64,000 nt of DNA from Escherichia phage vB_EcoM_G10400. The stretch lies in the sequence record MK327937.1; one strand, written 5' to 3'. Shown piece after piece: positions 3,133 to 19,241 of the stretch. The translations under genes were made by a program, and so were the position numbers. How positions within the stretch are numbered: the stretch's first letter is position 1; each line of letters starts with the position of its first letter. Under the pieces are notes generated by a model, which was not told the DNA's origin, made no database searches, and was given only the letters and a program-made list of their open reading frames with translations.

Positions 3133-3813
3133 TTATTTTAATGTTACGAAAGAAGAATTACGTGTTTCACGAATTAGAACTGATCCGTCACGATTAATGT
3201 AGTAAATTAAGCTAAATAAAGTTTGGTGTGCCGACGCATGTTCAAAACTAGTTGGGTGAGATTTCCAATCTGGGGTTTCAGCAATCCATTGATAAATCCA
3301 CCAAGGAACAGTGCAGAATCCTGGATTTTTTCCAATCAGCTGAAGATTCGGACTAAAGTTTTCCGGAAGAGTAAATACAGACGGCTTTTCGGATTCAATA
3401 ATCTCAGCTACAGCCTGTTCGAATTTTTCTTCAACAAAAGGAGTATCTTCAATTAAAACAGTGGTATTTTCAGGAATTTTATCCGTTTCTACTACTTCAA
3501 TTTTAATGTCAGATTTAACCGGAGAATCAATCAGAAGTGCTGCCTCTGGATTGACTTCTTCATCGTCATATTTTAATCCGTCTGCGGCATCAGCAGCATC
3601 AATTAAGTCTTTAATAGATAACCCATCAGTCTCTGGCATAGGTTCACTAGCGAGCTTCTGGAGAGCTTCTTCAATATCATTAACGATATTATCAAAAGAT
3701 TTATTCTTTTTGACCTTTATACCAAACTGTTCAGCATATTCAGCTAATTTAGCTTTAGCTTCTTTATTATCATCAAGAGCCTTCAGCTCTGCAATATAAT
3801 CTTTATCTATCAT
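3133..3813 (-). CDS. inh: Inhibitor of prohead protease gp21 (Inh)
   Basis: 226 aa, position between hoc and segE as in T4; start ATG at 3811-3813 lies inside the duplicated 55-bp block so the true start context is ambiguous. Confidence 0.7.
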   Translation of the reverse strand: MIDKDYIAELKALDDNKEAKAKLAEYAEQFGIKVKKNKSFDNIVNDIEEALQKLASEPMPETDGLSIKDLIDAADAADGLKYDDEEVNPEAALLIDSPVKSDIKIEVVETDKIPENTTVLIEDTPFVEEKFEQAVAEIIESEKPSVFTLPENFSPNLQLIGKNPGFCTVPWWIYQWIAETPDWKSHPTSFEHASAHQTLFSLIYYINRDGSVLIRETRNSSFVTLK

Positions 3814-3835
3814 AATATTTCCTCAGTATAAATAT
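3781..3835. repeat. 55-bp direct repeat, copy 1 (flank of inserted adapter)
   Basis: Identical to 3958-4012 (cttcagctctgcaatataatctttatctatcataatatttcctcagtataaatat). Confidence 0.95.
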
Positions 3836-3901
3836 CTGTCTCTTATACACATCTCCGAGCCCACGAGACCGTACTAGATCTCGTATGCCGTCTTCTGCTT
3901 G
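3836..3901 (+). other. Illumina Nextera adapter read-through (mosaic end + read 2 adapter + 8-nt i7 index + P7), non-biological
   Basis: CTGTCTCTTATACACATCTCCGAGCCCACGAGAC (3836-3869), CGTACTAG (3870-3877), ATCTCGTATGCCGTCTTCTGCTTG (3878-3901) read directly in the sequence. Confidence 0.95.
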
Positions 3902-4012
<111 letters not shown>

Positions 4013-4039
4013 AGATATATTTATTACTCGGAAAATAGT

Positions 4040-4657
4040 ATGTACCACTTTGTATATGAAACAACAAATCTAATAAATGGTAAAAAGTATATAGGAAAAC
4101 ACTCTACTGATGACTTGAATGATGGTTACCTTGGTTCCGGTAAGGCAATTCAGCAGGCTATAAAGAAATATGGTGAAAACAATTTCTCTAGAACAATACT
4201 AAAAGAGTTTAAAACTTCCGAAGAAGCGTACATGTATGAAGAAGAAATTATAACTCCTGAAATAATAAAAAGCAAAAATTATTATAATATGAAACCTGGT
4301 GGAATTGGTGGAATTGTTATGACTACAGAGGTTATAGCAAAGATGAAAGAATCTTCCGCTAAGAGATTTGAAAACTCACCGGGCACGGTATTAGGTACAA
4401 CTTGTTACACTAATGGAACTAAAAATATTTTTATTAAACCTGGAGAACTTGTTCCAGAAGGATTTGTAAAAGGAATGGTTCATCCTAATAGAAAGTCCAG
4501 AAAAGGATGTAAAGTCAAACCGACTACCACAGGAACTTTTTGGGTCAATAACGGTGCAATAAATAAATTAATACAACCAGACGGTATTATTCCCGACGGA
4601 TTTATTAAAGGTCGTCTCATGAAAAGAGATTCTAAAGGCAAATTTAGTAAGGCATAA
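4040..4657 (+). CDS. segE: GIY-YIG homing endonuclease SegE
   Basis: 205 aa; N-terminal GIY-YIG module (YIGKHS ... GYLGSG); located between inh and uvsW where T4 segE sits. Confidence 0.75.
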   Translation: MYHFVYETTNLINGKKYIGKHSTDDLNDGYLGSGKAIQQAIKKYGENNFSRTILKEFKTSEEAYMYEEEIITPEIIKSKNYYNMKPGGIGGIVMTTEVIAKMKESSAKRFENSPGTVLGTTCYTNGTKNIFIKPGELVPEGFVKGMVHPNRKSRKGCKVKPTTTGTFWVNNGAINKLIQPDGIIPDGFIKGRLMKRDSKGKFSKA

Positions 4658-4659
4658 TT

Positions 4660-6168
4660 ATGGATATTAAAGTACATTTTCACGACTTCAGCCATGTACG
4701 CATCGATTGTGAAGAGAGCACGTTCCACGAATTAAGAGATTTCTTTTCGTTTGAGGCCGATGGATATAGATTTAATCCTCGCTTCAGATATGGCAACTGG
4801 GATGGACGAATCCGTCTTTTAGATTATAATCGTCTTCTTCCATTTGGCTTAGTCGGGCAAATTAAAAAGTTCTGTGATAACTTTGGCTATAAAGCCTGGA
4901 TTGACCCACAAATTAACGAAAAAGAAGAATTATCAAGAAAAGATTTTGATGAATGGCTTTCTAAATTAGAAATCTATTCAGGAAATAAAAGAATTGAACC
5001 GCATTGGTATCAAAAAGATGCAGTGTTCGAAGGATTAGTTAATCGTCGTAGAATTCTTAATCTTCCAACATCCGCTGGTAAATCTTTAATTCAAGCTTTG
5101 CTTGCGCGATATTATTTGGAAAATTATGAAGGCAAAATTCTTATCATTGTTCCAACAACTGCTCTGACAACTCAGATGGCTGATGACTTTGTTGACTATC
5201 GTTTATTCAGTCATGCAATGATAAAGAAAATCGGCGGTGGAGCATCAAAAGATGATAAATATAAAAATGATGCACCGGTCGTTGTTGGTACATGGCAAAC
5301 TGTAGTTAAACAACCAAAAGAATGGTTCTCACAGTTTGGAATGATGATGAATGATGAATGCCATCTTGCTACAGGAAAAAGTATTTCATCTATCATATCA
5401 GGTTTAAATAACTGTATGTTTAAATTTGGTCTATCTGGTTCATTACGTGATGGCAAAGCCAATATCATGCAGTATGTTGGAATGTTTGGTGAAATATTTA
5501 AGCCAGTAACGACTTCTAAGTTAATGGAAGATGGACAAGTAACTGAGCTAAAAATTAATAGTATTTTTCTTCGCTATCCCGATGAGTTCACTACTAAATT
5601 AAAGGGAAAAACTTATCAAGAAGAAATAAAAATTATTACTGGGCTTAGTAAAAGAAATAAATGGATCGCTAAATTAGCTATTAAGCTTGCGCAAAAAGAT
5701 GAAAACGCTTTTGTCATGTTTAAACATGTATCACATGGTAAAGCTATTTTCGATTTAATTAAAAATGAATACGATAAAGTTTATTACGTATCAGGGGAAG
5801 TTGATACCGAAACCCGCAATATAATGAAAACCTTAGCTGAAAATGGTAAAGGAATAATTATAGTAGCTAGTTATGGTGTATTTTCTACTGGTATTTCAGT
5901 TAAAAATCTGCATCACGTTGTTTTAGCGCACGGTGTTAAATCAAAAATCATTGTATTACAAACAATCGGTCGTGTATTACGTAAGCATGGTTCTAAGACA
6001 ATAGCAACCGTCTGGGACCTCATAGATGATTGTGGCGTTAAGCCAAAATCTGCTAATACGAAAAAGAAATATGTTCATTTGAACTATCTTTTAAAACACG
6101 GCATTGATCGTATTCAGCGCTACGCAGATGAAAAATTTAATTACGTAATGAAAACAGTTAATTTATAA
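4660..6168 (+). CDS. uvsW: UvsW RNA-DNA and DNA helicase
   Basis: 502 aa; SF2 helicase motifs (PTSAGKS Walker A, DECH box); synteny. Confidence 0.9.
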   Translation: MDIKVHFHDFSHVRIDCEESTFHELRDFFSFEADGYRFNPRFRYGNWDGRIRLLDYNRLLPFGLVGQIKKFCDNFGYKAWIDPQINEKEELSRKDFDEWLSKLEIYSGNKRIEPHWYQKDAVFEGLVNRRRILNLPTSAGKSLIQALLARYYLENYEGKILIIVPTTALTTQMADDFVDYRLFSHAMIKKIGGGASKDDKYKNDAPVVVGTWQTVVKQPKEWFSQFGMMMNDECHLATGKSISSIISGLNNCMFKFGLSGSLRDGKANIMQYVGMFGEIFKPVTTSKLMEDGQVTELKINSIFLRYPDEFTTKLKGKTYQEEIKIITGLSKRNKWIAKLAIKLAQKDENAFVMFKHVSHGKAIFDLIKNEYDKVYYVSGEVDTETRNIMKTLAENGKGIIIVASYGVFSTGISVKNLHHVVLAHGVKSKIIVLQTIGRVLRKHGSKTIATVWDLIDDCGVKPKSANTKKKYVHLNYLLKHGIDRIQRYADEKFNYVMKTVNL

Positions 6169-6193
6169 GGGCTTCGGCCCTTTGGAGAAAAAG

Positions 6194-6424
6194 ATGTTAC
6201 TAGAATTTAAACAATTTCTTTATGAAGCTTCTATTGATGAATTTATGGGTAAAATTGCCTCTTGTCAAACATTAGAAGGTTTAGAAGAACTTGAAGCTTA
6301 TTATAAGAAAAGAGTTAAAGAAACTGAATTAAAAGATACTGATGACATCTCTGTGAGAGATGCTTTGGCAGGAAAAAGAGCTGAATTAGAAGATTCAGAT
6401 GATGAAGTAGAAGAAAGCTTTTAA
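6194..6424 (+). CDS. uvsW.1: UvsW.1 small acidic protein
   Basis: ATG at 6194 preceded by GGAG; ORF track start at 6182 is a TTG; 76 aa as in T4. Confidence 0.7.
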   Translation: MLLEFKQFLYEASIDEFMGKIASCQTLEGLEELEAYYKKRVKETELKDTDDISVRDALAGKRAELEDSDDEVEESF

Positions 6425-6479
6425 ATTAAAAAAGGCCCAACCAAAAAGGAAGGGCCAAAACTATAGACTAAAGGTCACA

Positions 6480-6647
6480 CTATAGCAAAAGTTGTGTTTC
6501 ATTTAATTGTTCTTCCGAACTTTCTGAAACTGGTAGTTCTTTAATGTAATTATAGCAAGGCCCAGGATGTACAGGACCTTTGTCTGTTTCAACAACCAAT
6601 GCAGAATCGATTGGAGTTTTACAGACAACACAAATCTTATCTGACAT
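6480..6647 (-). CDS. Unlisted 55-aa ORF with Cys-rich zinc-ribbon-like motifs (uvsY-region small gene)
   Basis: ATG 6645-6647 preceded by AGAGGAG; MSDKICVVCKTP...PGPCYNY; below ORF-track size cutoff. Confidence 0.45.
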   Translation of the reverse strand: MSDKICVVCKTPIDSALVVETDKGPVHPGPCYNYIKELPVSESSEEQLNETQLLL

Positions 6648-6675
6648 GATTGTCTCCTCTGAATTATATATCTAT

Positions 6676-6900
6676 TTATACAACTCTCATATGCATATCA
6701 ATGCCCATATCTTTAGAATAAAAATATTCATCAAGATATCCAGCAAATTTTCCTTTAATATAAAGGACATCTTCACCACACGGGTGGTCGGCCAGGATAC
6801 GAATATCCTGACGCTTAAGATTATACTTTTTCATTAAGAATTGAATCTCAGTTTCAAATTCTTCTTCATAATTAAAAGCATCATCAATGCTATATCTCAT
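6676..6900 (-). CDS. Hypothetical small protein downstream of uvsY
   Basis: 74-aa ORF; its start overlaps the uvsY stop. Confidence 0.55.
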   Translation of the reverse strand: MRYSIDDAFNYEEEFETEIQFLMKKYNLKRQDIRILADHPCGEDVLYIKGKFAGYLDEYFYSKDMGIDMHMRVV

Positions 6901-7313
6901 TATTTTCCAGCCTCAAATGCTCGCATGTCTTGAATGTGCTTAATAGCAAATCCACGTGATTTAATAGCATCAAGAGCTCCGCTACAGAAATCTAATAAAA
7001 TCCCCCAATACTGTAACGAGGTATCAACCTTTAAAACATCCTTATCAGCTGATAGAACTGTCTTCATTTCTGATTTCTCGTAACGATCCATACTAAATTC
7101 ATCACCATCTCCTCGTCCCGAGTAGTAGTCTAATTTAGCTTTAAGAGCAACTTTCTTTTGCGCGTCAATTCTAAGCATTTCCTTTTTAATACTTGAATGC
7201 TTATTAAGCCATTTACTATATAACATCACATTATTAGCTGCTTCATACTGTAATTTAGTCGAATCTATAAACACATCTTTCTTCAATTCTTCTTGAAGAT
7301 CTTCTAATCTCAT
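6900..7313 (-). CDS. uvsY: Recombination mediator UvsY
   Basis: 137 aa; matches T4 UvsY length and position. Confidence 0.9.
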   Translation of the reverse strand: MRLEDLQEELKKDVFIDSTKLQYEAANNVMLYSKWLNKHSSIKKEMLRIDAQKKVALKAKLDYYSGRGDGDEFSMDRYEKSEMKTVLSADKDVLKVDTSLQYWGILLDFCSGALDAIKSRGFAIKHIQDMRAFEAGK

Positions 7314-7353
7314 ATTGTTCTCTATTCAATTGTTATTGGATGGACTTAGATTC

Positions 7354-7380
7354 ATTATACCACGTTTTAACGTGAAGCAT
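7354..7380 (-). promoter_or_regulatory. Candidate MotA-dependent middle promoter for uvsY
   Basis: On minus strand ATGCTTCA (MotA-box-like, 7373-7380), 13-nt spacer, then TATAAT (7354-7359) with upstream TG. Confidence 0.45.
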
Positions 7381-7778
7381 TATACTCTATTACTAGAAGC
7401 CAGTTGCAGTTTTATCTGCTCAATATCATCAGGGTTATCGATGACCGAAAAACGTATTTCTACTATCAGAGTATAATCATCATAAACGGGTATCACATTA
7501 ACTGCTAATTTATCAATACGTGGCTCATAGTTTCTTACTGCGCTTTCGATATTACGCTCAACTGTGTCAGCAGTAAGAGGAGTCATATTTTCAAAAAGCT
7601 GGTCTGATAAATCACATCCAAATTCAGGGTCAAACGGTCTTGAACCTTTTCTTGTTGTAATAATTCCCAAAAGACTGTTTTTAATTGACCTTAATCCAAG
7701 TGATCTGGAAACGTCTTTGTTCCAATCCATTTTCATTTCCGGGTCAATGTCAGAATAAAGCTTATTAATATTTGACAT
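7380..7778 (-). CDS. 25: Baseplate wedge protein gp25
   Basis: 132 aa; synteny and length match T4 gp25. Confidence 0.85.
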   Translation of the reverse strand: MSNINKLYSDIDPEMKMDWNKDVSRSLGLRSIKNSLLGIITTRKGSRPFDPEFGCDLSDQLFENMTPLTADTVERNIESAVRNYEPRIDKLAVNVIPVYDDYTLIVEIRFSVIDNPDDIEQIKLQLASSNRV

Positions 7779-8404
7779 TATAGTAACTCAAAGAACTCTT
7801 TGAGGCCTCTTATTACGTGAGCATGGGTTTTTCCACACTCTGGACACTTAATTGGAACAGCCAAATAAACAGTAGGCTTTAAAAGCATATCTTTTATAGC
7901 TACAATATCTGACTCTGTGATGATAGAATATAAATCTTCCAGTTCTTTTTCATTTAAGTCTTCAACTGGAATGCTTTCCCCGTTAGCATGAATCGTTTCT
8001 ATACATGATACTATCATGTGGGCTATATTTTTATCATCAAAAATTTTAGGGTATCGGAATTTAATTTTAATGTCACCCAGTGTATACCAGAGGTCTTCTG
8101 GTGCATCTATTTGTGTATGTAATAGATTTATATGGGTTGGTATTTCAGTTCCACAGGTGCACTTCCAGGAGTTTTCGTGATTAACTTCACCGAGAGAATG
8201 TGCCCATAAATGAATCAACAATAGTTCTGATTCTTGGCGGTTTAAATCTTTTGCATTTGTGCAGTCTTTGATTAGCTTTTTAACAATTACTTCTACGGAA
8301 CCATTATTTTTGGCAGTAATAAGTTCTAGATATTCTTTAAGCGTGAATGCGCGACAATTGATTATTTTAGAACCAACTCTCACATCAAATTTGTATTCAT
8401 ACAT
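7778..8404 (-). CDS. 26: Baseplate hub protein gp26
   Basis: 208 aa; synteny and length match T4 gp26. Confidence 0.8.
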
Positions 8405-8425
8405 ATTTAGCTCCTTTATTTATCA

Positions 8426-8437
8426 TATTTATAAATA
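8426..8437. promoter_or_regulatory. Overlapping divergent late promoter cores for genes 26 and 51
   Basis: TATTTATAAATA reads TATAAATA on plus (8430-8437) and on minus (8426-8433); sits between the divergent starts at 8404 and 8455. Confidence 0.5.
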
Positions 8438-8454
8438 GAATAAAAGGAGCATCT

Positions 8455-9204
8455 ATGGCAAACATTATTCGTTGTAAATTACCAGATGGTGTTCATCGTT
8501 TTAAACCATTTACGGTAGAAGATTATCGAGATTTTTTGTTAGTTCGAAACGATATAGAACATCGGTCACCGCAAGAACAAAAAGAAATAATTACTGATTT
8601 AATTGATGATTATTTTGGAGACTATCCGAAGACTTGGCAACCATTTATATTTTTGCAGGTATTTGTAGGGTCGATAGGTAAAACTAAAGTACCGGTCACA
8701 TTTGTATGTCCAAAATGTAAAAAAGAAAAGACAGTTCCATTTGAAATATACCAAAAAGAATTAAAGGAACCTGTTTTTGATGTAGCTAATGTTAAAATTA
8801 AATTAAAGTTTCCTTCTGAGTTTTATGAAAATAAAGCAAAGATGATTACTGAAAATATTCATTCTGTCCAAGTAGATGAAATATGGTATGATTGGAAGGA
8901 AATTAGTGAATCAAGCCAAATAGAACTTGTTGATGCCATCGAGATAGAAACATTAGAAAAAATTCTCGATGCAATGAATCCTATTAATTTAACTCTACAT
9001 ATGTCATGCTGTAATAAGTACATTAAAAAATACACTGATATAGTAGATGTGTTTAAGCTATTAGTTAACCCAGATGAAATATTTACTTTTTATCAAATTA
9101 ATCACACACTCGTAAAAAGTAATTATAGCTTAAATTCAATAATGAAAATGATTCCTGCCGAGCGCGGATTCGTATTAAAACTGATTGAGAAGGATAAACA
9201 ATAA
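8455..9204 (+). CDS. 51: Baseplate hub assembly catalyst gp51
   Basis: 249 aa; synteny. Confidence 0.8.
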
Positions 9205-10379
9205 TGAGTATGTTGCAACGCCCCGGATATCCAAATCTCAGCGTTAAATTATTTGATAGCTACGACGCTTGGAGTAATAATAGATTTGTTGAATTAGCTG
9301 CTACTATTACCACATTAACTATGCGGGATTCTCTTTATGGCCGAAATGAAGGAATGTTGCAGTTTTATGATTCTAAAAACATCCATACAAAAATGGATGG
9401 AAATGAAATAATTCAGATTTCTGTAGCTAATGCAAATGATATTAATAATGTTAAAACACGAATTTATGGATGTAAGCATTTTTCCGTGTCAGTAGATTCA
9501 AAAGGTGATAACATCATTGCTATTGAATTGGGAACTATTCATTCTATAGAAAATCTTAAATTTGGTAGACCATTTTTCCCTGATGCGGGTGAATCAATAA
9601 AAGAAATGCTTGGTGTCATTTATCAAGACCGTACACTATTAACTCCAGCAATAAATGCTATAAATGCTTATGTTCCTGATATTCCATGGACTAGCACATT
9701 TGAAAACTATTTGTCATATGTAAGAGAAGTTGCTCTAGCTGTAGGAAGTGACAAATTTGTATTTGTGTGGCAAGACATCATGGGAGTTAACATGATGGAC
9801 TATGATATGATGATAAACCAAGAACCATATCCAATGATTGTCGGCGAGCCATCTTTAATAGGTCAATTCATCCAAGAATTAAAATACCCATTAGCATATG
9901 ATTTCGTTTGGTTGACTAAATCGAATCCTCACAAACGTGACCCAATGAAAAATGCTACTATCTATGCTCATTCATTTTTAGATTCTTCATTGCCAATGAT
10001 TACTACGGGAAAGGGCGAAAACTCTATTGTAGTGTCAAGGTCAGGTGCTTATTCTGAAATGACTTATAGGAATGGTTATGAAGAAGCTATTCGTCTTCAA
10101 ACTATGGCACAATATGACGGCTATGCTAAATGTTCTACTGTCGGTAATTTTAACTTGACTCCTGGTGTTAAAATTATTTTTAATGATAGTAAAAACCAAT
10201 TTAAAACAGAATTTTACGTTGATGAAGTTATCCATGAATTATCAAATAATAATTCAGTAACTCATCTTTATATGTTCACTAATGCAACGAAACTGGAAAC
10301 AATAGACCCAGTTAAGGTTAAAAATGAATTTAAATCTGATACTACCACTGAAGAAAGTAGTTCTTCCAATAAGCAATAA
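9204..10379 (+). CDS. 27: Baseplate hub protein gp27
   Basis: 391 aa; synteny and length. Confidence 0.85.
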
Positions 10380-10857
10380 AGAAGTTTCTATTCCTAAAAT
10401 GGGTCTTAAACATTATAACATTTTAAAGGATGTTAAAGGTCCTGATGAAAATTTAAAACTTCTTATTGATTCTATTTGTCCGAATTTATCACCGGCAGAA
10501 GTTGATTTCGTTTCTATTCATTTATTGGAATTTAATGGAAAGATTAAATCTCGTAAAGAAATAGATGGCTATACTTATGACATTAATGATGTCTATGTAT
10601 GCCAAAGATTGGAATTTCAATACCAAGGAAATACATTTTATTTTAGACCTCCTGGAAAATTTGAACAATTTTTAACGGTGAGCGATATGTTATCTAAATG
10701 CTTGCTTAAGGTCAACGATGAAGTTAAAGAAATTAATTTTCTTGAGATGCCAGCATTCGTTTTAAAATGGGCAAATGATATTTTTACAACTTTAGCAATT
10801 CCTGGCCCTAATGGTCCAATAACTGGAATTGGCAATATTATTGGATTATTTGAATGA
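10324..10857 (+). CDS. 28: Baseplate hub distal subunit gp28
   Basis: 177 aa; overlaps 3' end of gene 27. Confidence 0.75.
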
Positions 10858-12626
10858 AAAAGCCACAAGAAATGCAAACGATGCGTAGAAAAGTTATTTC
10901 AGATAATAAACCAACACAGGAAGCGGCTAAATCCGCTTCCAACACTTTATCTGGACTTAATGATATATCTACGAAATTGGATGATGCTCAAGCTGCTTCT
11001 GAATTAATAGCTCAAACTGTCGAAGAAAAATCGAATGAAATAGTTGGAGCAATTGGTAACGTAGAAAGCGCAGTGAGTGATACTACTGCCGGTTCTGAGT
11101 TAATTGCCGAGACTGTTGAAATTGGCAATAATATCAATAAAGAAATAGGCGAATCACTCGGAAGTAAATTAGATAAATTAACAAGTTTACTAGAGCAAAA
11201 AATTCAGACAGCTGGAATTCAACAGACTGGAACTAGTTTAGCCACAGTTGAAAGCGCTATTCCTGTTAAAGTCGTTGAGGATGATACTGCTGAATCTGTG
11301 GGTCCTTTATTACCGGCCCCTGAAGCAGTTAATAATGATCCTGACGCTGATTTTTTCCCTACCCCTCAGCCAGTTGAACCCAAACAAGAATCGCCAGAAG
11401 AAAAACAGAAAAAAGAAGCATTTAACTTAAAATTATCTCAAGCTTTAGATAAATTAACGAAGACTGTTGATTTTGGATTTAAAAAATCCATTTCAATTAC
11501 TGATAAAATATCAAGCATGTTATTTAAGTACACCATCAGTGCTGCTATTGAAGCTGCTAAAATGACTGCAATGATATTGGCTGTTGTTGTTGGAATAGAC
11601 CTGTTGATGGTTCATTTTAAATACTGGTCAGATAAATTTTCAAAAGCCTGGGATTTATTTAATACTGACTTTACTAAATTCTCTAGCGAAACCGGAACAT
11701 GGGGTCCTTTATTACAGAGCATCTTTGATTCTATTGATAAAATTAAACAACTTTGGGAAGCGGGAGATTGGGGTGGATTGACAGCAGCTATTGTTGAAGG
11801 ACTCGGAAGTGTTCTTTTTAATTTAGGTGAACTTATTCAATTAGGTATGGCTAAATTATCTGCAGCAATTCTTCGAGTCATTCCTGGTATGAAGGATACT
11901 GCTGATGAAGTAGAAGGAAGAGCATTAGAAAATTTCCAAAATTCTACTGGAGCATCTCTCAATAAAGAAGACCAGGAAAAAGTTGCAAATTATCAAGATA
12001 AACGAATGAACGGAGACCTTGGTCCGATAGCAAAAGGATTAGATAAAATTGCTAATTGGAAAACTCGTGCATCTAATTGGATTCGTGGGGTTGATAATAA
12101 AGAAGCACTAACTACCGACGAAGAACGTGCAGCAGAAGAAGAAAAATTAAAGCAACTTTCACCTGAAGAAAGAAAAAATGCTTTAATGAAGGCTAATGAA
12201 GCCCGTGCCGCAATGATTCGCTTTGAAAAATATGCTGATTCAGCTGATATGAGTAAAGACTCAACGGTTAAATCTGTTGAATCTGCCTATGAAGACCTTA
12301 AAAAACGGATGGATGACCCGGATTTAAATAATTCACCGGCAGTTAAAAAAGAACTTGCTGCTAGATTTTCTAAAATTGATGCTACTTATCAAGAGCTCAA
12401 GAAAAATCAGCCTAATGCCAAACCTGAAACTTCTGCTAAATCGCCAGAAGCAAAACAAGTCCAGGTAATAGAAAAGAACAAAGCACAGCAAGCTCCTGTT
12501 CAACAAGCATCTCCTTCAATCAATAATACTAATAATGTTATTAAGAAAAATACTGTCGTTCATAATATGACACCTGTCACAAGCACAACTGCTCCTGGTG
12601 TATTTGATGCGACTGGGGTTAATTAA
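10854..12626 (+). CDS. 29: Baseplate hub / tail length determinator gp29
   Basis: 590 aa; synteny and length. Confidence 0.85.
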   Translation: MKKPQEMQTMRRKVISDNKPTQEAAKSASNTLSGLNDISTKLDDAQAASELIAQTVEEKSNEIVGAIGNVESAVSDTTAGSELIAETVEIGNNINKEIGESLGSKLDKLTSLLEQKIQTAGIQQTGTSLATVESAIPVKVVEDDTAESVGPLLPAPEAVNNDPDADFFPTPQPVEPKQESPEEKQKKEAFNLKLSQALDKLTKTVDFGFKKSISITDKISSMLFKYTISAAIEAAKMTAMILAVVVGIDLLMVHFKYWSDKFSKAWDLFNTDFTKFSSETGTWGPLLQSIFDSIDKIKQLWEAGDWGGLTAAIVEGLGSVLFNLGELIQLGMAKLSAAILRVIPGMKDTADEVEGRALENFQNSTGASLNKEDQEKVANYQDKRMNGDLGPIAKGLDKIANWKTRASNWIRGVDNKEALTTDEERAAEEEKLKQLSPEERKNALMKANEARAAMIRFEKYADSADMSKDSTVKSVESAYEDLKKRMDDPDLNNSPAVKKELAARFSKIDATYQELKKNQPNAKPETSAKSPEAKQVQVIEKNKAQQAPVQQASPSINNTNNVIKKNTVVHNMTPVTSTTAPGVFDATGVN

Positions 12627-14694: not shown

Positions 14695-14698
14695 CAAT

Positions 14699-14716
14699 GG
14701 GGACCTTTCGGTCCCC
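14699..14716. terminator. Bidirectional intrinsic terminator between gene 54 and the alt region
   Basis: GGGGACC-TTTC-GGTCCCC hairpin followed by T-rich run. Confidence 0.65.
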
Positions 14717-14722
14717 ATATTT

Positions 14723-15013
14723 TTATTTACGGAATGAAATAAAAGCAGCAACTGAAGCAACTAAACTGTCTTCAATATAAACCTCAATTTTTACCGGAGC
14801 TTCTGACTCAAATTTACCTGTTACTACACCTTGGAAAATACTTTCAGTCTGTTCTGGCTTTGAAAAATTTTCAGAAGGAAAAATTCCGAACTTTTTATCT
14901 GTTCCAAAAATTTTGATAAATTCATCGTAAACTGCTTCATTAAAAGCATTATCAGCAGGAATAACTCCTTCAACTACAAGTTCTTGACCTAAAAAGCGCA
15001 AAGAAGATTTCAT
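14723..15013 (-). CDS. Hypothetical early protein downstream of alt paralogs
   Basis: 96-aa ORF; GAGGA Shine-Dalgarno and ATG at 15011-15013. Confidence 0.6.
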   Translation of the reverse strand: MKSSLRFLGQELVVEGVIPADNAFNEAVYDEFIKIFGTDKKFGIFPSENFSKPEQTESIFQGVVTGKFESEAPVKIEVYIEDSLVASVAAFISFRK

Positions 15014-15044: not shown

Positions 15045-15074
15045 ACTATAACACAACACGAGGGACTTGTAAAC
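15045..15074 (-). promoter_or_regulatory. Candidate early promoter (GTTTAC -35, 18-nt spacer, TATAGT -10)
   Basis: Minus-strand GTTTAC at 15069-15074 and TATAGT at 15045-15050; part of a ~50-bp cassette repeated at 30281-30334. Confidence 0.5.
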
Positions 15075-17131
15075 TACATTTTGAACTTTTTAGACATTCC
15101 GTTGATGTTAACCAAAGAAGCCAAGATTTGAGAAACTTCATTTTCCTCTTCTTTTGATTCTTCTACAAGGAATTGATTAAATCCAGCCATTGGACGAACT
15201 TCACCAGTTTCCATTAGATGGTCTCCATCATATACTGATTCTTCTAATTGTTCAGAAGGAGGAACGATTGTACCTTCGATTAGATACTTGTTATAAGCAG
15301 TTTCTTTCATAAAGTACGTACTTACTTTATTAATCTTCAGTAAAATTCCACGTGGTAGAATAACTTCAGCTTCTGATGGAAATCCTGATAAATGACCTGG
15401 AACGATAACTTTGATTCGCTCAGCTCCTTTAATTATCATACCCACGCTAGTTTCTGCATCTTCATTAGCATATGTAGAATGACTACCCATATGCATCAAA
15501 TCTTCTGCATCAACGGAACCTTCTCCTTCACCAGAAAATACTGCGCCGGAATCATCTAGAGCCATATAGTTTTTACCATGCTCACCGAAGATATTTGGTT
15601 TAAGCGATGTGGATACGAAGTTCTTGAAATAGAACATTTTATTTTCAATGTTATGACGCAAAGTTTTAAAGGTAACTTCTTGCCCACGGTAAAGTGTAGT
15701 TCCTGGAGGAAGAACTGATCCTTTGGCAAAGGCAGAATCTAACGTCTCGATGTGCTTAATAGCTCGTTCCATGTATTCTTCACGGGTAGAATCTGGTTTA
15801 CCCAAAAGGAACGAGTTCATTTCAACATATGAATCTGCACAATAATCTTCAATTACATCAGATTCAGCCTGAGTCAGTCCTTTTGGAGCTACTTCGGTGC
15901 TTGCGTATTCATATGCCTGGGCAGCAGATTCATTAATCAATTTATAAATGCCATTCATGACAAATTGAATAATAGCTGTCTTTTCATCTGGTGTGGTTTT
16001 AGAACCTTTAACTAAATCATTAATAATTTTCTTAATAACATCAAAGCTATTAGAAATATTAATGTCAGCAAGATCGCTTAAAATTTTATCAGTTTTATAA
16101 TCAAAGAATTCTTTATTCTTTAAATATTCTTGAGAACCTTGATATGTTATATCGCTCTGCAACTTGATAGATGGATCACGTAAACGTGCATGGGCCAATG
16201 CAATATGATTTCGGAAGCTTTCTAGTTCATAATCGTTAGATTTAAAACGAGAAGCACTTCTCATACCACCGATAGCTCCTTTGCTGAAGTTTGAACCAAT
16301 CTGGATAACGCCAGAGTTCATCGGACCTTCTGCTTTATATACCGGAACTTTAGATTCAAACTCTTGATATTTCTTGGCAGCAAAGCTATCACCCTGAAGT
16401 GAAGCATCAACAGTAGAATATTGAGCTTGTGCTGCTAATCGACGACTTATTTTAGTTTTCTGAATAACAGCTTGGTCCGTGCGCTTATCATTTTCTAAAG
16501 CAATAGAAGCAGCAACAGCGACAGCTTTAGGAACAGCATTTCCTGTTTTAACGTCTACATAAACATCACCGACCTTTGATTCAACTTTTGTGAATAACTC
16601 AGTTGAAATAGGAGGTACACCTGGAATGTCTTCTAAATTGGCATTTTTACGGTAAACCATAATATATGCATATTTCTTATCATAGTCCCAGATTTCCTTT
16701 AAAAGAACATATCGACCTGCTCCTTTAGTACGTACTAAACGGTCAGCAATAACTTGCATTTGACGAGCTGCGCCATTTGTTTTACTTTTTAGTACGCGGA
16801 ATAGGCATGCGTCGATTTTATACTGTTTCATTGTTTGAAGAGCAGTATCAAAAACGGCATTAATGACACCAATTGGATTTCCACCCAAGTTTTTAAGCTT
16901 AACTAATGATAGTTTCTCATTAACACCTATCATTACGATATGCATCATTTTATCGCCTGGCTTAACGTTTTTATTCGTATCACCACCAGAGGTGTATGTA
17001 CAAAATCTAAATCCAGGAAGCACGCTTTCTTCGCCGGCTTGAATAGCAAAAATTTGTGGTATTTTATGCTTAGGATTTAAGTTAACAACCGGCGCCGAAG
17101 CGCCGTCAAATAATTCTGTAATAAGTTCCAT
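15074..17131 (-). CDS. Alt-like ADP-ribosyltransferase paralog
   Basis: 685 aa; N-terminus MELITELFD and blocks shared with the adjacent alt; ART signature residues present (TLYRGQ, FVSTSL, EAEVILPRG). Confidence 0.75.
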   Translation of the reverse strand: MELITELFDGASAPVVNLNPKHKIPQIFAIQAGEESVLPGFRFCTYTSGGDTNKNVKPGDKMMHIVMIGVNEKLSLVKLKNLGGNPIGVINAVFDTALQTMKQYKIDACLFRVLKSKTNGAARQMQVIADRLVRTKGAGRYVLLKEIWDYDKKYAYIMVYRKNANLEDIPGVPPISTELFTKVESKVGDVYVDVKTGNAVPKAVAVAASIALENDKRTDQAVIQKTKISRRLAAQAQYSTVDASLQGDSFAAKKYQEFESKVPVYKAEGPMNSGVIQIGSNFSKGAIGGMRSASRFKSNDYELESFRNHIALAHARLRDPSIKLQSDITYQGSQEYLKNKEFFDYKTDKILSDLADINISNSFDVIKKIINDLVKGSKTTPDEKTAIIQFVMNGIYKLINESAAQAYEYASTEVAPKGLTQAESDVIEDYCADSYVEMNSFLLGKPDSTREEYMERAIKHIETLDSAFAKGSVLPPGTTLYRGQEVTFKTLRHNIENKMFYFKNFVSTSLKPNIFGEHGKNYMALDDSGAVFSGEGEGSVDAEDLMHMGSHSTYANEDAETSVGMIIKGAERIKVIVPGHLSGFPSEAEVILPRGILLKINKVSTYFMKETAYNKYLIEGTIVPPSEQLEESVYDGDHLMETGEVRPMAGFNQFLVEESKEEENEVSQILASLVNINGMSKKFKM

Positions 17132-17134
17132 GAT

Positions 17135-19189
17135 TTATCCTTGAACGAACTTGTAAGGCATGTTTGCAATATCTATACAAGACGCAATAATTCCAAGAGA
17201 TGATTCTACTTTCTGTTTAACATTTGATGAAACAAATGATGCAAAGTCAACTCTGTCTTCTACTTCAATATCACCTGTCATTGTAACTACTTCGCCGGTT
17301 TCCATTAGACGGTCACCGTCATAAATTACCGATTCGGTGAGTTCTTCTGTGGTCATAACTTCAGCTTGAATAAGCTTGTTGTTAGTTTTAACTGTTCCAT
17401 CATTGTAAGATGCATCGGTTATTTTATTAACTTTGACCATTAATCCACGTGGCAAAATGACTTCCATTTCATTTGAAGGTGCTAAACTTCCACCTGGTAA
17501 AACAACATTGACTTTATCAGCCCCAGTAATAACCCATCCAATTCCAACTAAATTATCGCTAGAATTTACTAGTCCTTCATCAGTTTTATCAATAGAAACA
17601 CTTAAACGCTTTTCGTCTGGTAAAACACCCACAGATGAATCAGTCATCCAGGTACCAAAAATATTTGGATATAATGATGTTGACACAAAGTTTCTAAAAT
17701 AAAAAACTCGATTTTTTACCATTGCTTCATATATTGAAGGTAACATTCGTTGTGAACGATACAAAGTAATACCTTTTGGTAATCGTTCACCATTTTTAAA
17801 GGCTGAATCTAAATTATCAATAGCTTTTTCTATGTCAGATGCTGTCAAAATACTTGTACGCTCATCTGGATTATATAATCCCAAAAGAGCATTATTTATA
17901 TCTACATATCCTGAACCTACGTATTCACGAATTCCGCGTTTTTGCGCCGGTGTGTATTTAGATGAATCTTTATTTTCGACTATAGGATGTAATGACCATC
18001 CAGCGGTAAGAGCATATCCACGTAATTCTCTTCGAATAATCTTTGTTTTTATTGCATTCCAAGAATTTTGTACTAACTCATTTGCAGCATCTTGGTTTAA
18101 ATGCGAATGTTTGTTAATATTTCTTTCAAACCAAGCACCTTTATATTTTTCTAAGGTATCATCGACGATAGAAGCAATAGTTTCTAAAGTTTTTATTGAA
18201 GTAATAGATTCTTTTTTTAATTTTTCTAAAGCTTTATTTTTTATTTCTGCATTAATAATGGATTCTTTATCTTCAGGAATTATAGAAGCTTCTCTGAATG
18301 CCATCCCAGCTGTAACACTGCTAAGAGCATTCTCTAGTGCAAATCCTGAAGTAGAAATTACCGTTAATTCATTAGAATCAGAAATTAAAGGCGCGTCCGC
18401 TGGTTTATTTAATTCTGCCGCTGAAGCCTCAAATTTTTGAAACATCGGTGTTTCAAATCTAGAAGATTCCAATGACTGACTTTGTGCAATTGCTCTACGG
18501 GAAATTTTAACTTTAACGATTACAGCTTGGTCAGAACGTTTATCATTTTCTTGTGCAATAGATGCTGCAATTGCCTCATTTTTAGTTACTTGAGCTCCAG
18601 TATCTTTATTGATATAAACATCACCGACCTTCGATTCAACTTTAGTAAAGAGCTCGGTACTAATTTCTGGAACTCCTGGAATGTCTTCTAGTGATACATT
18701 TTTGCGATGTATAAGAATATATGCATACTTTTTATCATAATCCCAGAGTTCCTTAAGAAGGACGTATCTGCCACCTGAACGACTACGGATAAGTCTATCA
18801 GCAATAACTTGAATTTGTCGAGCTTGACCAGCGGTTTTAGACTTAAGAATACGAAGCATACAGGCATCAATTTTATACTGACGCATTGTTTGCATCGCAA
18901 CAGTAAAAACTGAATTGATATAATTAATTGGGCTTGGACCAAGACCTTTTAATTTAGCAATTGAACCTTTAGCAGTTAATGTAAAAGGAACAATATGCAT
19001 CATTTTATCGCCCATCTTTAAATCGCGATTAGTATCACCTCCAGATGTATAGGTACATAAACGAAAGCCTGGTTGTTCAATTGCATCATCAACATGAACT
19101 GAAAAAATTTGCGGTATTTTCTTCTTTGGATTTAAGTTTGTAATCGGAAGAGTAGTATCTTCGTCAAATAATTCTGTAATAAGTTCCAT
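17135..19189 (-). CDS. alt: ADP-ribosyltransferase Alt (packaged head protein)
   Basis: About 684 aa from second Met; sequence matches my recall of T4 Alt (MELITELFDEDTTLPITNL...); ART motifs TLYRSQ, FVSTSL, EMEVILPRG. Confidence 0.8.
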   Translation of the reverse strand: MELITELFDEDTTLPITNLNPKKKIPQIFSVHVDDAIEQPGFRLCTYTSGGDTNRDLKMGDKMMHIVPFTLTAKGSIAKLKGLGPSPINYINSVFTVAMQTMRQYKIDACMLRILKSKTAGQARQIQVIADRLIRSRSGGRYVLLKELWDYDKKYAYILIHRKNVSLEDIPGVPEISTELFTKVESKVGDVYINKDTGAQVTKNEAIAASIAQENDKRSDQAVIVKVKISRRAIAQSQSLESSRFETPMFQKFEASAAELNKPADAPLISDSNELTVISTSGFALENALSSVTAGMAFREASIIPEDKESIINAEIKNKALEKLKKESITSIKTLETIASIVDDTLEKYKGAWFERNINKHSHLNQDAANELVQNSWNAIKTKIIRRELRGYALTAGWSLHPIVENKDSSKYTPAQKRGIREYVGSGYVDINNALLGLYNPDERTSILTASDIEKAIDNLDSAFKNGERLPKGITLYRSQRMLPSIYEAMVKNRVFYFRNFVSTSLYPNIFGTWMTDSSVGVLPDEKRLSVSIDKTDEGLVNSSDNLVGIGWVITGADKVNVVLPGGSLAPSNEMEVILPRGLMVKVNKITDASYNDGTVKTNNKLIQAEVMTTEELTESVIYDGDRLMETGEVVTMTGDIEVEDRVDFASFVSSNVKQKVESSLGIIASCIDIANMPYKFVQG

Positions 19190-19241
19190 CATAGCCTCTC
19201 TAGTGTTTATTCTATTTATAAAATTAAAGGCCCGAAGGCCT

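Follow-up and report, generated by a model that had tools for sequence, protein, structure and literature searches.

Escherichia phage vB_EcoM_G10400 (MK327937.1) was shown to carry, within the stretch of 64,000 nucleotides (nt) analyzed here (hereafter, the window), two complete tandem genes for Alt-type ADP-ribosyltransferases (ARTs), namely copy A, the T4-type alt gene, and copy B, a second Alt paralogue that follows it. Copy B was found to have intact catalytic motifs, to have split anciently from copy A, to evolve under strong purifying selection, and to be the complete gene of which T4 retains only a stump. Judged from its sequence features, copy B probably encodes a second capsid-packaged, injected arginine ADP-ribosyltransferase with targets of its own, beside the classical Alt encoded by copy A. 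Public sequences and their annotations already include the pair, and it has been the subject of published discussion; what is added here is the origin of the T4 remnant, the ancient and constrained nature of copy B, and the modular character of the Alt locus as an effector array.

Catalytic motifs of the two Alt copies and predicted fold of copy B

The two genes were found as head-to-tail open reading frames (ORFs) of 685 codons each on the minus strand, with a spacer of 3 nt between them (Table 1). A first-pass annotation, made from the sequence alone, had described two adjacent ORFs of about 685 amino acids (aa) at these positions, both with the start MELITELFD; the product of copy B does start in this way, and the ORF of copy A reads MMELITELFD. 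The T4 annotation uses the second ATG (19189 in the window), which gives a product of 684 aa, and since the in-frame upstream ATG is also present in T4, both lengths refer to one and the same gene. Compared with T4 Alt, copy A showed a few substitutions, such as N20 for Y20 of T4, and, within the C-terminal propeptide cleaved off by gp21, an insertion of two residues (IEVEDR, where T4 has IEDR).

Both products were assigned to the ART family by two profile collections. In Pfam, they scored 123.4 bits (copy A) and 72.3 bits (copy B) against PF03496 (ADPrib_exo_Tox), for which the gathering cut-off is 23.4 bits. The phrog_802 profile, 'Alt-like RNA polymerase ADP-ribosyltransferase', was spanned end to end (positions 2-674 of 674) by residues 1-683 of copy A and residues 1-685 of copy B, with E-values of 6e-262 and 5e-256, respectively. 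The precomputed Pfam assignment PF26846 was present on all homologues. Meanwhile, neither copy matched a family in NCBIfam or, at E ≤ 0.01, a sequence in the search of solved structures, and the N-terminal domain plus helical region of copy B alone yielded only sub-threshold chance matches in Pfam (CesA, 17.6 bits versus a cut-off of 29.1; DUF6842). PADLOC gave no match for copy B or alt.-3; its TIR-like match to the helical region of copy A (16 bits, E 0.001) was rejected as a chance match.

As expected from the first-pass annotation, the ART signature was present in both copies, in the form of TLYRSQ, FVSTSL, and NEMEVILPRG in copy A and of TLYRGQ, FVSTSL, and SEAEVILPRG in copy B. The catalytic residues of copy A are R478, S503-T-S505, and E574-M-E576, counted from the annotated Met. 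An alignment of the two copies with 13 relatives from seven genera revealed that the R/S-T-S/E-x-E residues were retained throughout, and that they were invariant among the B-type proteins; no loss of a catalytic residue was seen in either copy. The E-x-E sequence is the arginine-specific form of this motif in C3-like toxins. In T4 Alt, the E577A substitution, which affects the second Glu of E-x-E (counted from the upstream ATG), abolished all ADP-ribosylation (PMC11404850).

The fold was assessed on copy B by using an AlphaFold model built from a 15-sequence alignment, in which the mean predicted local distance difference test (pLDDT) score was 72 and the ART region mostly scored 75-90. The model was composed of three folded parts, that is, an alpha/beta N-terminal domain (residues ~12-215), a helical part (~250-470), and a beta-rich ART core (~475-622). 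A Foldseek search with the ART part returned the Vis toxin, C3 exoenzymes (C3bot), CDTa, iota-like toxins, and VIP2, all with a probability of 1.00 and a target template modeling (TM) score of ~0.6. The PF03496 scores above the gathering threshold, the end-to-end phrog_802 matches, and the predicted ART fold of copy B were all in good agreement with the initial designation of the two ORFs as Alt-type ADP-ribosyltransferase paralogues.

Divergence, loss in T4, and modular exchange

Over their full length, copies A and B shared 41% identity and 55% positives in BLASTP (E 2e-162), far beyond chance. The central divergence remarked upon in the first-pass annotation was evident when identity was resolved by region: it amounted to 68% in residues 1-238 (copy B numbering), 14% in residues 239-412, 36% in residues 413-620, and 44% in residues 621-685. 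Synonymous divergence (dS) between the copies was saturated in every domain (1.2-1.4), and the duplication is therefore old. Nonsynonymous divergence (dN) was 0.28 in the N-terminal domain versus 0.76-0.95 in the other parts; given the saturated dS, the 68% identity of the N-terminal domains thus reflects constraint. Recent gene conversion was rejected as the source of their similarity, as the dS of the N-terminal domain (1.42) was saturated like that of the remaining gene.

Within the ART domain, copy A was separated from copy B by insertions and deletions between the S-T-S and E-x-E motifs. In addition, the third residue before the first Glu of E-x-E was aromatic (F, Y, and Y) in three B-type proteins and P, I, H, or M in the A-type proteins. 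The ADP-ribosylating toxin turn-turn (ARTT) motif of C3 exoenzymes has an aromatic residue at the same position, which is taken here as a lead. Together with the unlike helical regions, these differences suggest that the two enzymes may have different targets, and an altered or additional target specificity of copy B, as had been proposed at the outset, is plausible.

Compared with its orthologues in T6, T2, RB51, and vB_EcoM_11B_SA_NWU, copy B displayed dN/dS values of 0.037-0.046 at dS values up to 0.25, indicating strong purifying selection and hence a working gene. As many as 401 phage records, those of T2, T6, and RB51 among them, contained the complete segment of copy B that is missing from T4, at 94-99% nucleotide identity, and at least 139 records combined a T4-type copy A with a full-length copy B. 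Both genes were annotated as Alt or Alt-like in many records, and RB51 labels both 'alt'. The expectation that T4 would lack an identical pair was accordingly borne out, since T4 holds only the deleted remnant alt.-1/alt.-2, but the pair does not set the window apart, as T2, T6, RB51, and approximately 400 other genomes carry it in annotated form.

It was copy A that proved to be variable. Two very different alleles of this gene were found in Tequatrovirus, a T4 type in ~175 records and a T2/T6 type (697 aa) in ~320 records. At the DNA level, their identity was 98% in the N-terminal domain and 96% in the C-terminal tail but fell to 43-74% for the part between them; the breakpoints, close to residues 240 and 616, were sharp. 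Within Tequatrovirus, therefore, copy B is the conserved gene and copy A the variable one, which reverses the first-pass description of the second copy as a divergent extra.

The T4 genes alt.-1 (NP_049810, 61 aa) and alt.-2 (NP_049809, 67 aa) were almost identical to residues 1-118 of copy B, at the DNA level as well. DNA alignment revealed that 1,699 bp of copy B have been cleanly deleted in T4, a segment flanked in the window by a 9-bp direct repeat, and that an A-run of T4 is one base shorter, causing the frameshift that splits alt.-1 from alt.-2 (Table 1). The text of the T4 record describes the two genes as 'an old duplication of the first part of gene alt'. They were shown here to be the stump of a complete second gene, B, lost by deletion between short repeats and a 1-nt frameshift. 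The contiguous T4-type deletion junction was present in 91 of the 499 matching records, comprising natural isolates as well as laboratory T4.

Alt genes were compared at the corresponding locus in other genera. Dhakavirus QL01 has three tandem Alt-like genes of 694, 681, and 707 aa, which are 3 nt apart (extracted locus 5995-12255), Moonvirus CF1 has two, the second of which is split, and the Aeromonas phages 31 and 44RR have two tandem Alt genes each. A single, frameshifted Alt gene was found in Gelderlandvirus Melville, and the 11 kb examined of the Mosigvirus-like ECO111 5-P (an unclassified record) contained one Alt-like ORF. Per-domain identity matrices and neighbor-joining trees conflicted with one another. 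The N-terminal domains clustered by genome or genus, as seen in the window pair and in QL01 copies 2 and 3 (89%). The helical plus ART module of copy B was nearest to those of QL01 copy 3 (50%) and CF1 copy 2 (35%), each in the final position of its array, with copy A at 26%; against QL01 copy 3, the identity was 45% in the middle region, 55% in the ART domain, and 67% in the tail. The split between A and B is thus ancient, with B-type orthologues standing last in the arrays of Dhakavirus and Moonvirus. As a separate observation, QL01 copies 2 and 3 have N-terminal domains of 89% amino acid identity yet unrelated effector parts; their near-identical N-termini may reflect gene conversion in that genus.

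The ART module of the T6 allele showed 84-94% DNA identity to QL01 copy 1, as compared with 40-63% for the N-terminal domains (extracts T6 3501-5594 and QL01 5995-8079), which indicates that the T2/T6-type ART module was exchanged recently between genera. Taken together, the Alt family was shown to be modular, with a constant N-terminal domain and C-terminal propeptide placed around an exchangeable helical plus ART part.

Proposed expression, processing, and role of copy B

A match to the T4 late-promoter consensus, TATAAATA, precedes the start of copy A by ~20 nt, and no other site of this kind lies immediately ahead of the pair. A Shine-Dalgarno-like AAGGA occurs in the last codons of copy A, ahead of copy B. 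Downstream of the pair, alt.-3 is preceded by an early-type promoter of its own, and the transcription unit is closed by a bidirectional terminator. A second TATAAATA was noted inside copy A on the minus strand (17893-17900), some 760 nt ahead of the start of copy B, and could either drive an independent copy B transcript or be a chance match.

T4 Alt is a prohead-core protein present in ~40 copies per head and injected with the DNA (PMC9026906); its cleavage by the protease gp21 occurs behind ITE-6 and behind LTE-619 (PMC5694885). Both copies in the window contain the motif MELITE/L and, at the position of LTE-619 of T4 Alt, the motif L-x-E/S (slashes mark the cleavage position), with ITE and LTE in copy A and ITE and LEE in copy B. 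The two gp21 motifs were conserved in nearly all of the 15 sequences compared. If processed at both motifs, copy B would have a predicted mature mass of ~69.2 kDa, and copy A one of 68.1 kDa.

Based on these features, both proteins follow a common plan, in which a 6-residue N-terminal propeptide ending in ITE precedes an alpha/beta N-terminal domain of ~230 residues and a type-specific helical region, followed by a C3/VIP2-like R-S-E ART with the arginine-type E-x-E and by a propeptide behind the L-x-E motif. Copies A and B would be co-transcribed late, as a single transcript giving rise to both proteins, which could enter the prohead core through their common N- and C-terminal parts, be trimmed by gp21, and be injected together with the DNA. 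Each enzyme would then mono-ADP-ribosylate arginine residues in a separate set of host proteins. Those of copy A would include Arg265 of the RNA polymerase alpha subunit, the residue modified by T4 Alt (PMC2988021), and other known targets, and those of copy B would be set by its own helical region and ARTT loop.

Several points weigh against this assignment. Confidence in the model of copy B is only moderate, and the C-terminal tail is absent from it. The count of TATAAATA over the whole window was not above chance, so that its position upstream of copy A is suggestive only. The argument from the ARTT loop is an analogy with C3 toxins and serves as a lead. A literature search for the function of copy B yielded annotation-level remarks and no functional study, and a search for virion proteomics of a B-carrying phage found none. 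Moreover, T4 and the other records of the T4 type are viable in the absence of copy B, so that it is dispensable in at least some conditions and could be redundant with copy A.

Such redundancy, in which an injected copy B would modify the same sites as copy A and merely add activity or provide a backup, appears unlikely to us, although it agrees with the viability of B-less genomes, with the domain plan, E-x-E type, and processing motifs common to both copies, and with the fact that T4 Alt itself is non-essential and promiscuous (PMC2988021; PMC9026906). The effector parts of A and B have diverged to 14-36% identity with saturated dS, yet copy B maintains a dN/dS of ~0.04; A-type and B-type modules coexist in three genera, which is unexpected for simple redundancy, and the ARTT-loop residues are split by class. 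A role without injection, in which copy B acts late in the producing cell or is mainly a structural part of the prohead core with a secondary enzymatic activity, is considerably more doubtful. Its expression is probably late only, Alt has been described both as an enzyme and as a protein of the core (PMC11404850), and packaging of copy B is predicted from its similarity to T4 Alt; however, copy B has both gp21 motifs and the N-terminal domain in common with the packaged T4 protein, its catalytic residues are invariant across B-type proteins, and the T4 core assembles without it.

The reading of copy B as a decaying duplicate headed for the T4 state is essentially excluded for the window. Such decay has occurred elsewhere, in that T4-type genomes lost the gene by deletion and frameshift and split copies exist in related genera (Melville; copy 2 of CF1), but the ORF in the window is intact and keeps every catalytic residue, in keeping with the low dN/dS and the 401 full-length records. 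We thus favor the reading of copy B as a second injected arginine ADP-ribosyltransferase with its own targets. More tentatively, the alt locus of T-even-like phages as a whole might be an array of one to three injected effectors built like polymorphic toxins, the cargo of which is swapped even between genera; copy B would then modify a target other than RNA polymerase alpha, which could be a translation, metabolic, or anti-phage defense protein.

The gene order of T4 is retained across 12.6-22.5 kb of the window, with genes 48 and 54 on the plus strand, followed on the minus strand by alt.-3, copy B, copy A, alt.1, the DNA ligase gene 30, and 30.1-30.3. The placement of the Alt locus between gene 30/alt.1 and alt.-3/gene 54 is shared by the window, T4, and the compared relatives. 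A link between Alt and MazF is known. In T4, read-through mutations that lengthen the C-terminus of Alt.-3 allow escape from the CmdTAC defense system (PMC11618068). The bidirectional terminator hairpin in the gap between gene 54 and alt.-3 (14697-14718) has the loop TTTC, versus the inverted GAAA in T4 (extracted T4 locus 4720-4739), and its stem is 2 bp longer than that of T4. The best database match to positions 1-25000 was Escherichia phage vB_EcoM_G4507 (97.6% over 25 kb), as expected for a mosaic Tequatrovirus.

Table 1. Positions of the two Alt genes, their domains and motifs, and adjacent features in the window
Feature	Position	Strand	Remark
alt.-3 homologue, 96 aa, phrog_1739	14723-15013	-	Conserved downstream neighbor of the Alt array
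Early-type promoter of alt.-3, GTTTACA-17-TATAGT	15045-15073		Promoter-like site
Copy B, second Alt paralogue, 685 aa	15074-17131	-	Starts MELITELFD; begins 3 nt past the copy A stop codon
Copy B, N-terminal domain, residues 1-238	16418-17131	-	68% identical to copy A
Copy B, ITE-6 motif	17114-17122	-	
Copy B, helical middle region, residues 239-412	15896-16417	-	14% identical to copy A
Copy B, ART domain, residues 413-620	15272-15895	-	
Copy B, R482 in TLYRGQ	15680-15697	-	
Copy B, S507-T508-S509 in FVSTSL	15602-15619	-	
Copy B, E587-A-E589 in SEAEVILPRG	15347-15376	-	
Copy B, C-terminal tail	15074-15271	-	YDGDHLMETGEV and terminal KF conserved
Copy B, L-E-E/S motif	15233-15250	-	Aligned with the C-terminal gp21 site of T4 Alt
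Copy B segment absent from T4, 1,699 bp	15085-16783	-	Clean deletion in DNA alignment
9-bp direct repeat CTAAAAAGT	16784-16792 and 15085-15093		Flanks the segment deleted in T4
A-run position with one base less in T4	16972	-	Frameshift, alt.-1/alt.-2 split
Copy A, T4-type alt gene	17135-19192	-	99% identical to T4 Alt (NP_049811)
Copy A, N-terminal domain, residues 1-238	18476-19189	-	
Copy A, gp21 cleavage motif ITE-6	19172-19180	-	T4 site from PMC5694885
Copy A, effector module (helical middle region and ART domain)	17345-18475	-	
Copy A, TLYRSQ	17750-17767	-	
Copy A, FVSTSL	17672-17689	-	
Copy A, NEMEVILPRG	17444-17473	-	
Copy A, C-terminal propeptide	17135-17344	-	
Copy A, ELTE/SV	17327-17344	-	Equivalent of T4 gp21 site LTE-619 (PMC5694885)
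T4 late-promoter consensus TATAAATA	19213-19220	-	~20 nt upstream of the copy A start
alt.1 homologue, 62 aa	19242-19430	-	Conserved upstream neighbor; overlaps the end of DNA ligase gene 30

Relation to known Alt proteins and exoenzymes

Knowledge of Alt has come entirely from T4, which itself belongs to the B-less minority of Tequatrovirus records (91 of 499), and copy B has gone unstudied because this model phage deleted it. Nolan et al. (2006) listed alt.-1/alt.-2 and alt duplicates in other T4-like phages (PMC1524935), and a 2026 paper on phages 6phi13 and SHFML-11 described 'two paralogous Alt-like proteins ... sharing 43.29% identity' and proposed an expanded target range (PMC13600099). 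Most relatives of T4, T2 and T6 among them, appear to deliver two distinct ADP-ribosyltransferases by injection; should copy B indeed have host targets of its own, the earliest seconds of the T-even takeover would include an undescribed modification. The modular exchange of effectors further marks the Alt proteins as an arms-race locus.

Among known systems, T4 Alt matches copy B in its entire architecture, its locus, its R/S-T-S/E-x-E motifs, and its two gp21 motifs, and differs from it in the helical region, the ART domain, and the ARTT loop. In T2, T6, RB51, SHFML-11, 6phi13, and approximately 400 other Tequatrovirus records, a B protein of 97-99% identity is encoded at the equivalent position and, as in the window, 3 nt behind copy A, whereas T2, T6, and RB51 differ from the window in carrying the other copy A allele (697 aa, ~70% identical overall). 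The Alt arrays of Straboviridae occupy the same locus, from DNA ligase/alt.1 to alt.-3/gene 54, in copy numbers of one to three, with a B-type gene last in QL01 and CF1, and in these arrays, too, N-terminal domains cluster by genome and effector modules by type.

The small, early-expressed ADP-ribosyltransferases ModA and ModB of T4 lack a capsid-delivery N-terminal domain; a Mod-type identity of the two ORFs was rejected in favor of the Alt type on account of their size of 685 aa, their Alt N-terminal domain, and their propeptides. With the C3-like, VIP2, and iota-type exoenzymes of PF03496, the Alt copies share the R-S-E catalytic motifs and the predicted fold, at an identity of just 14-20%. 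Unlike these toxins, Alt proteins possess a phage-specific N-terminal domain, a long helical region, and propeptides removed by a protease, and their delivery proceeds by ejection from the capsid, whereas that of the exoenzymes proceeds by secretion.

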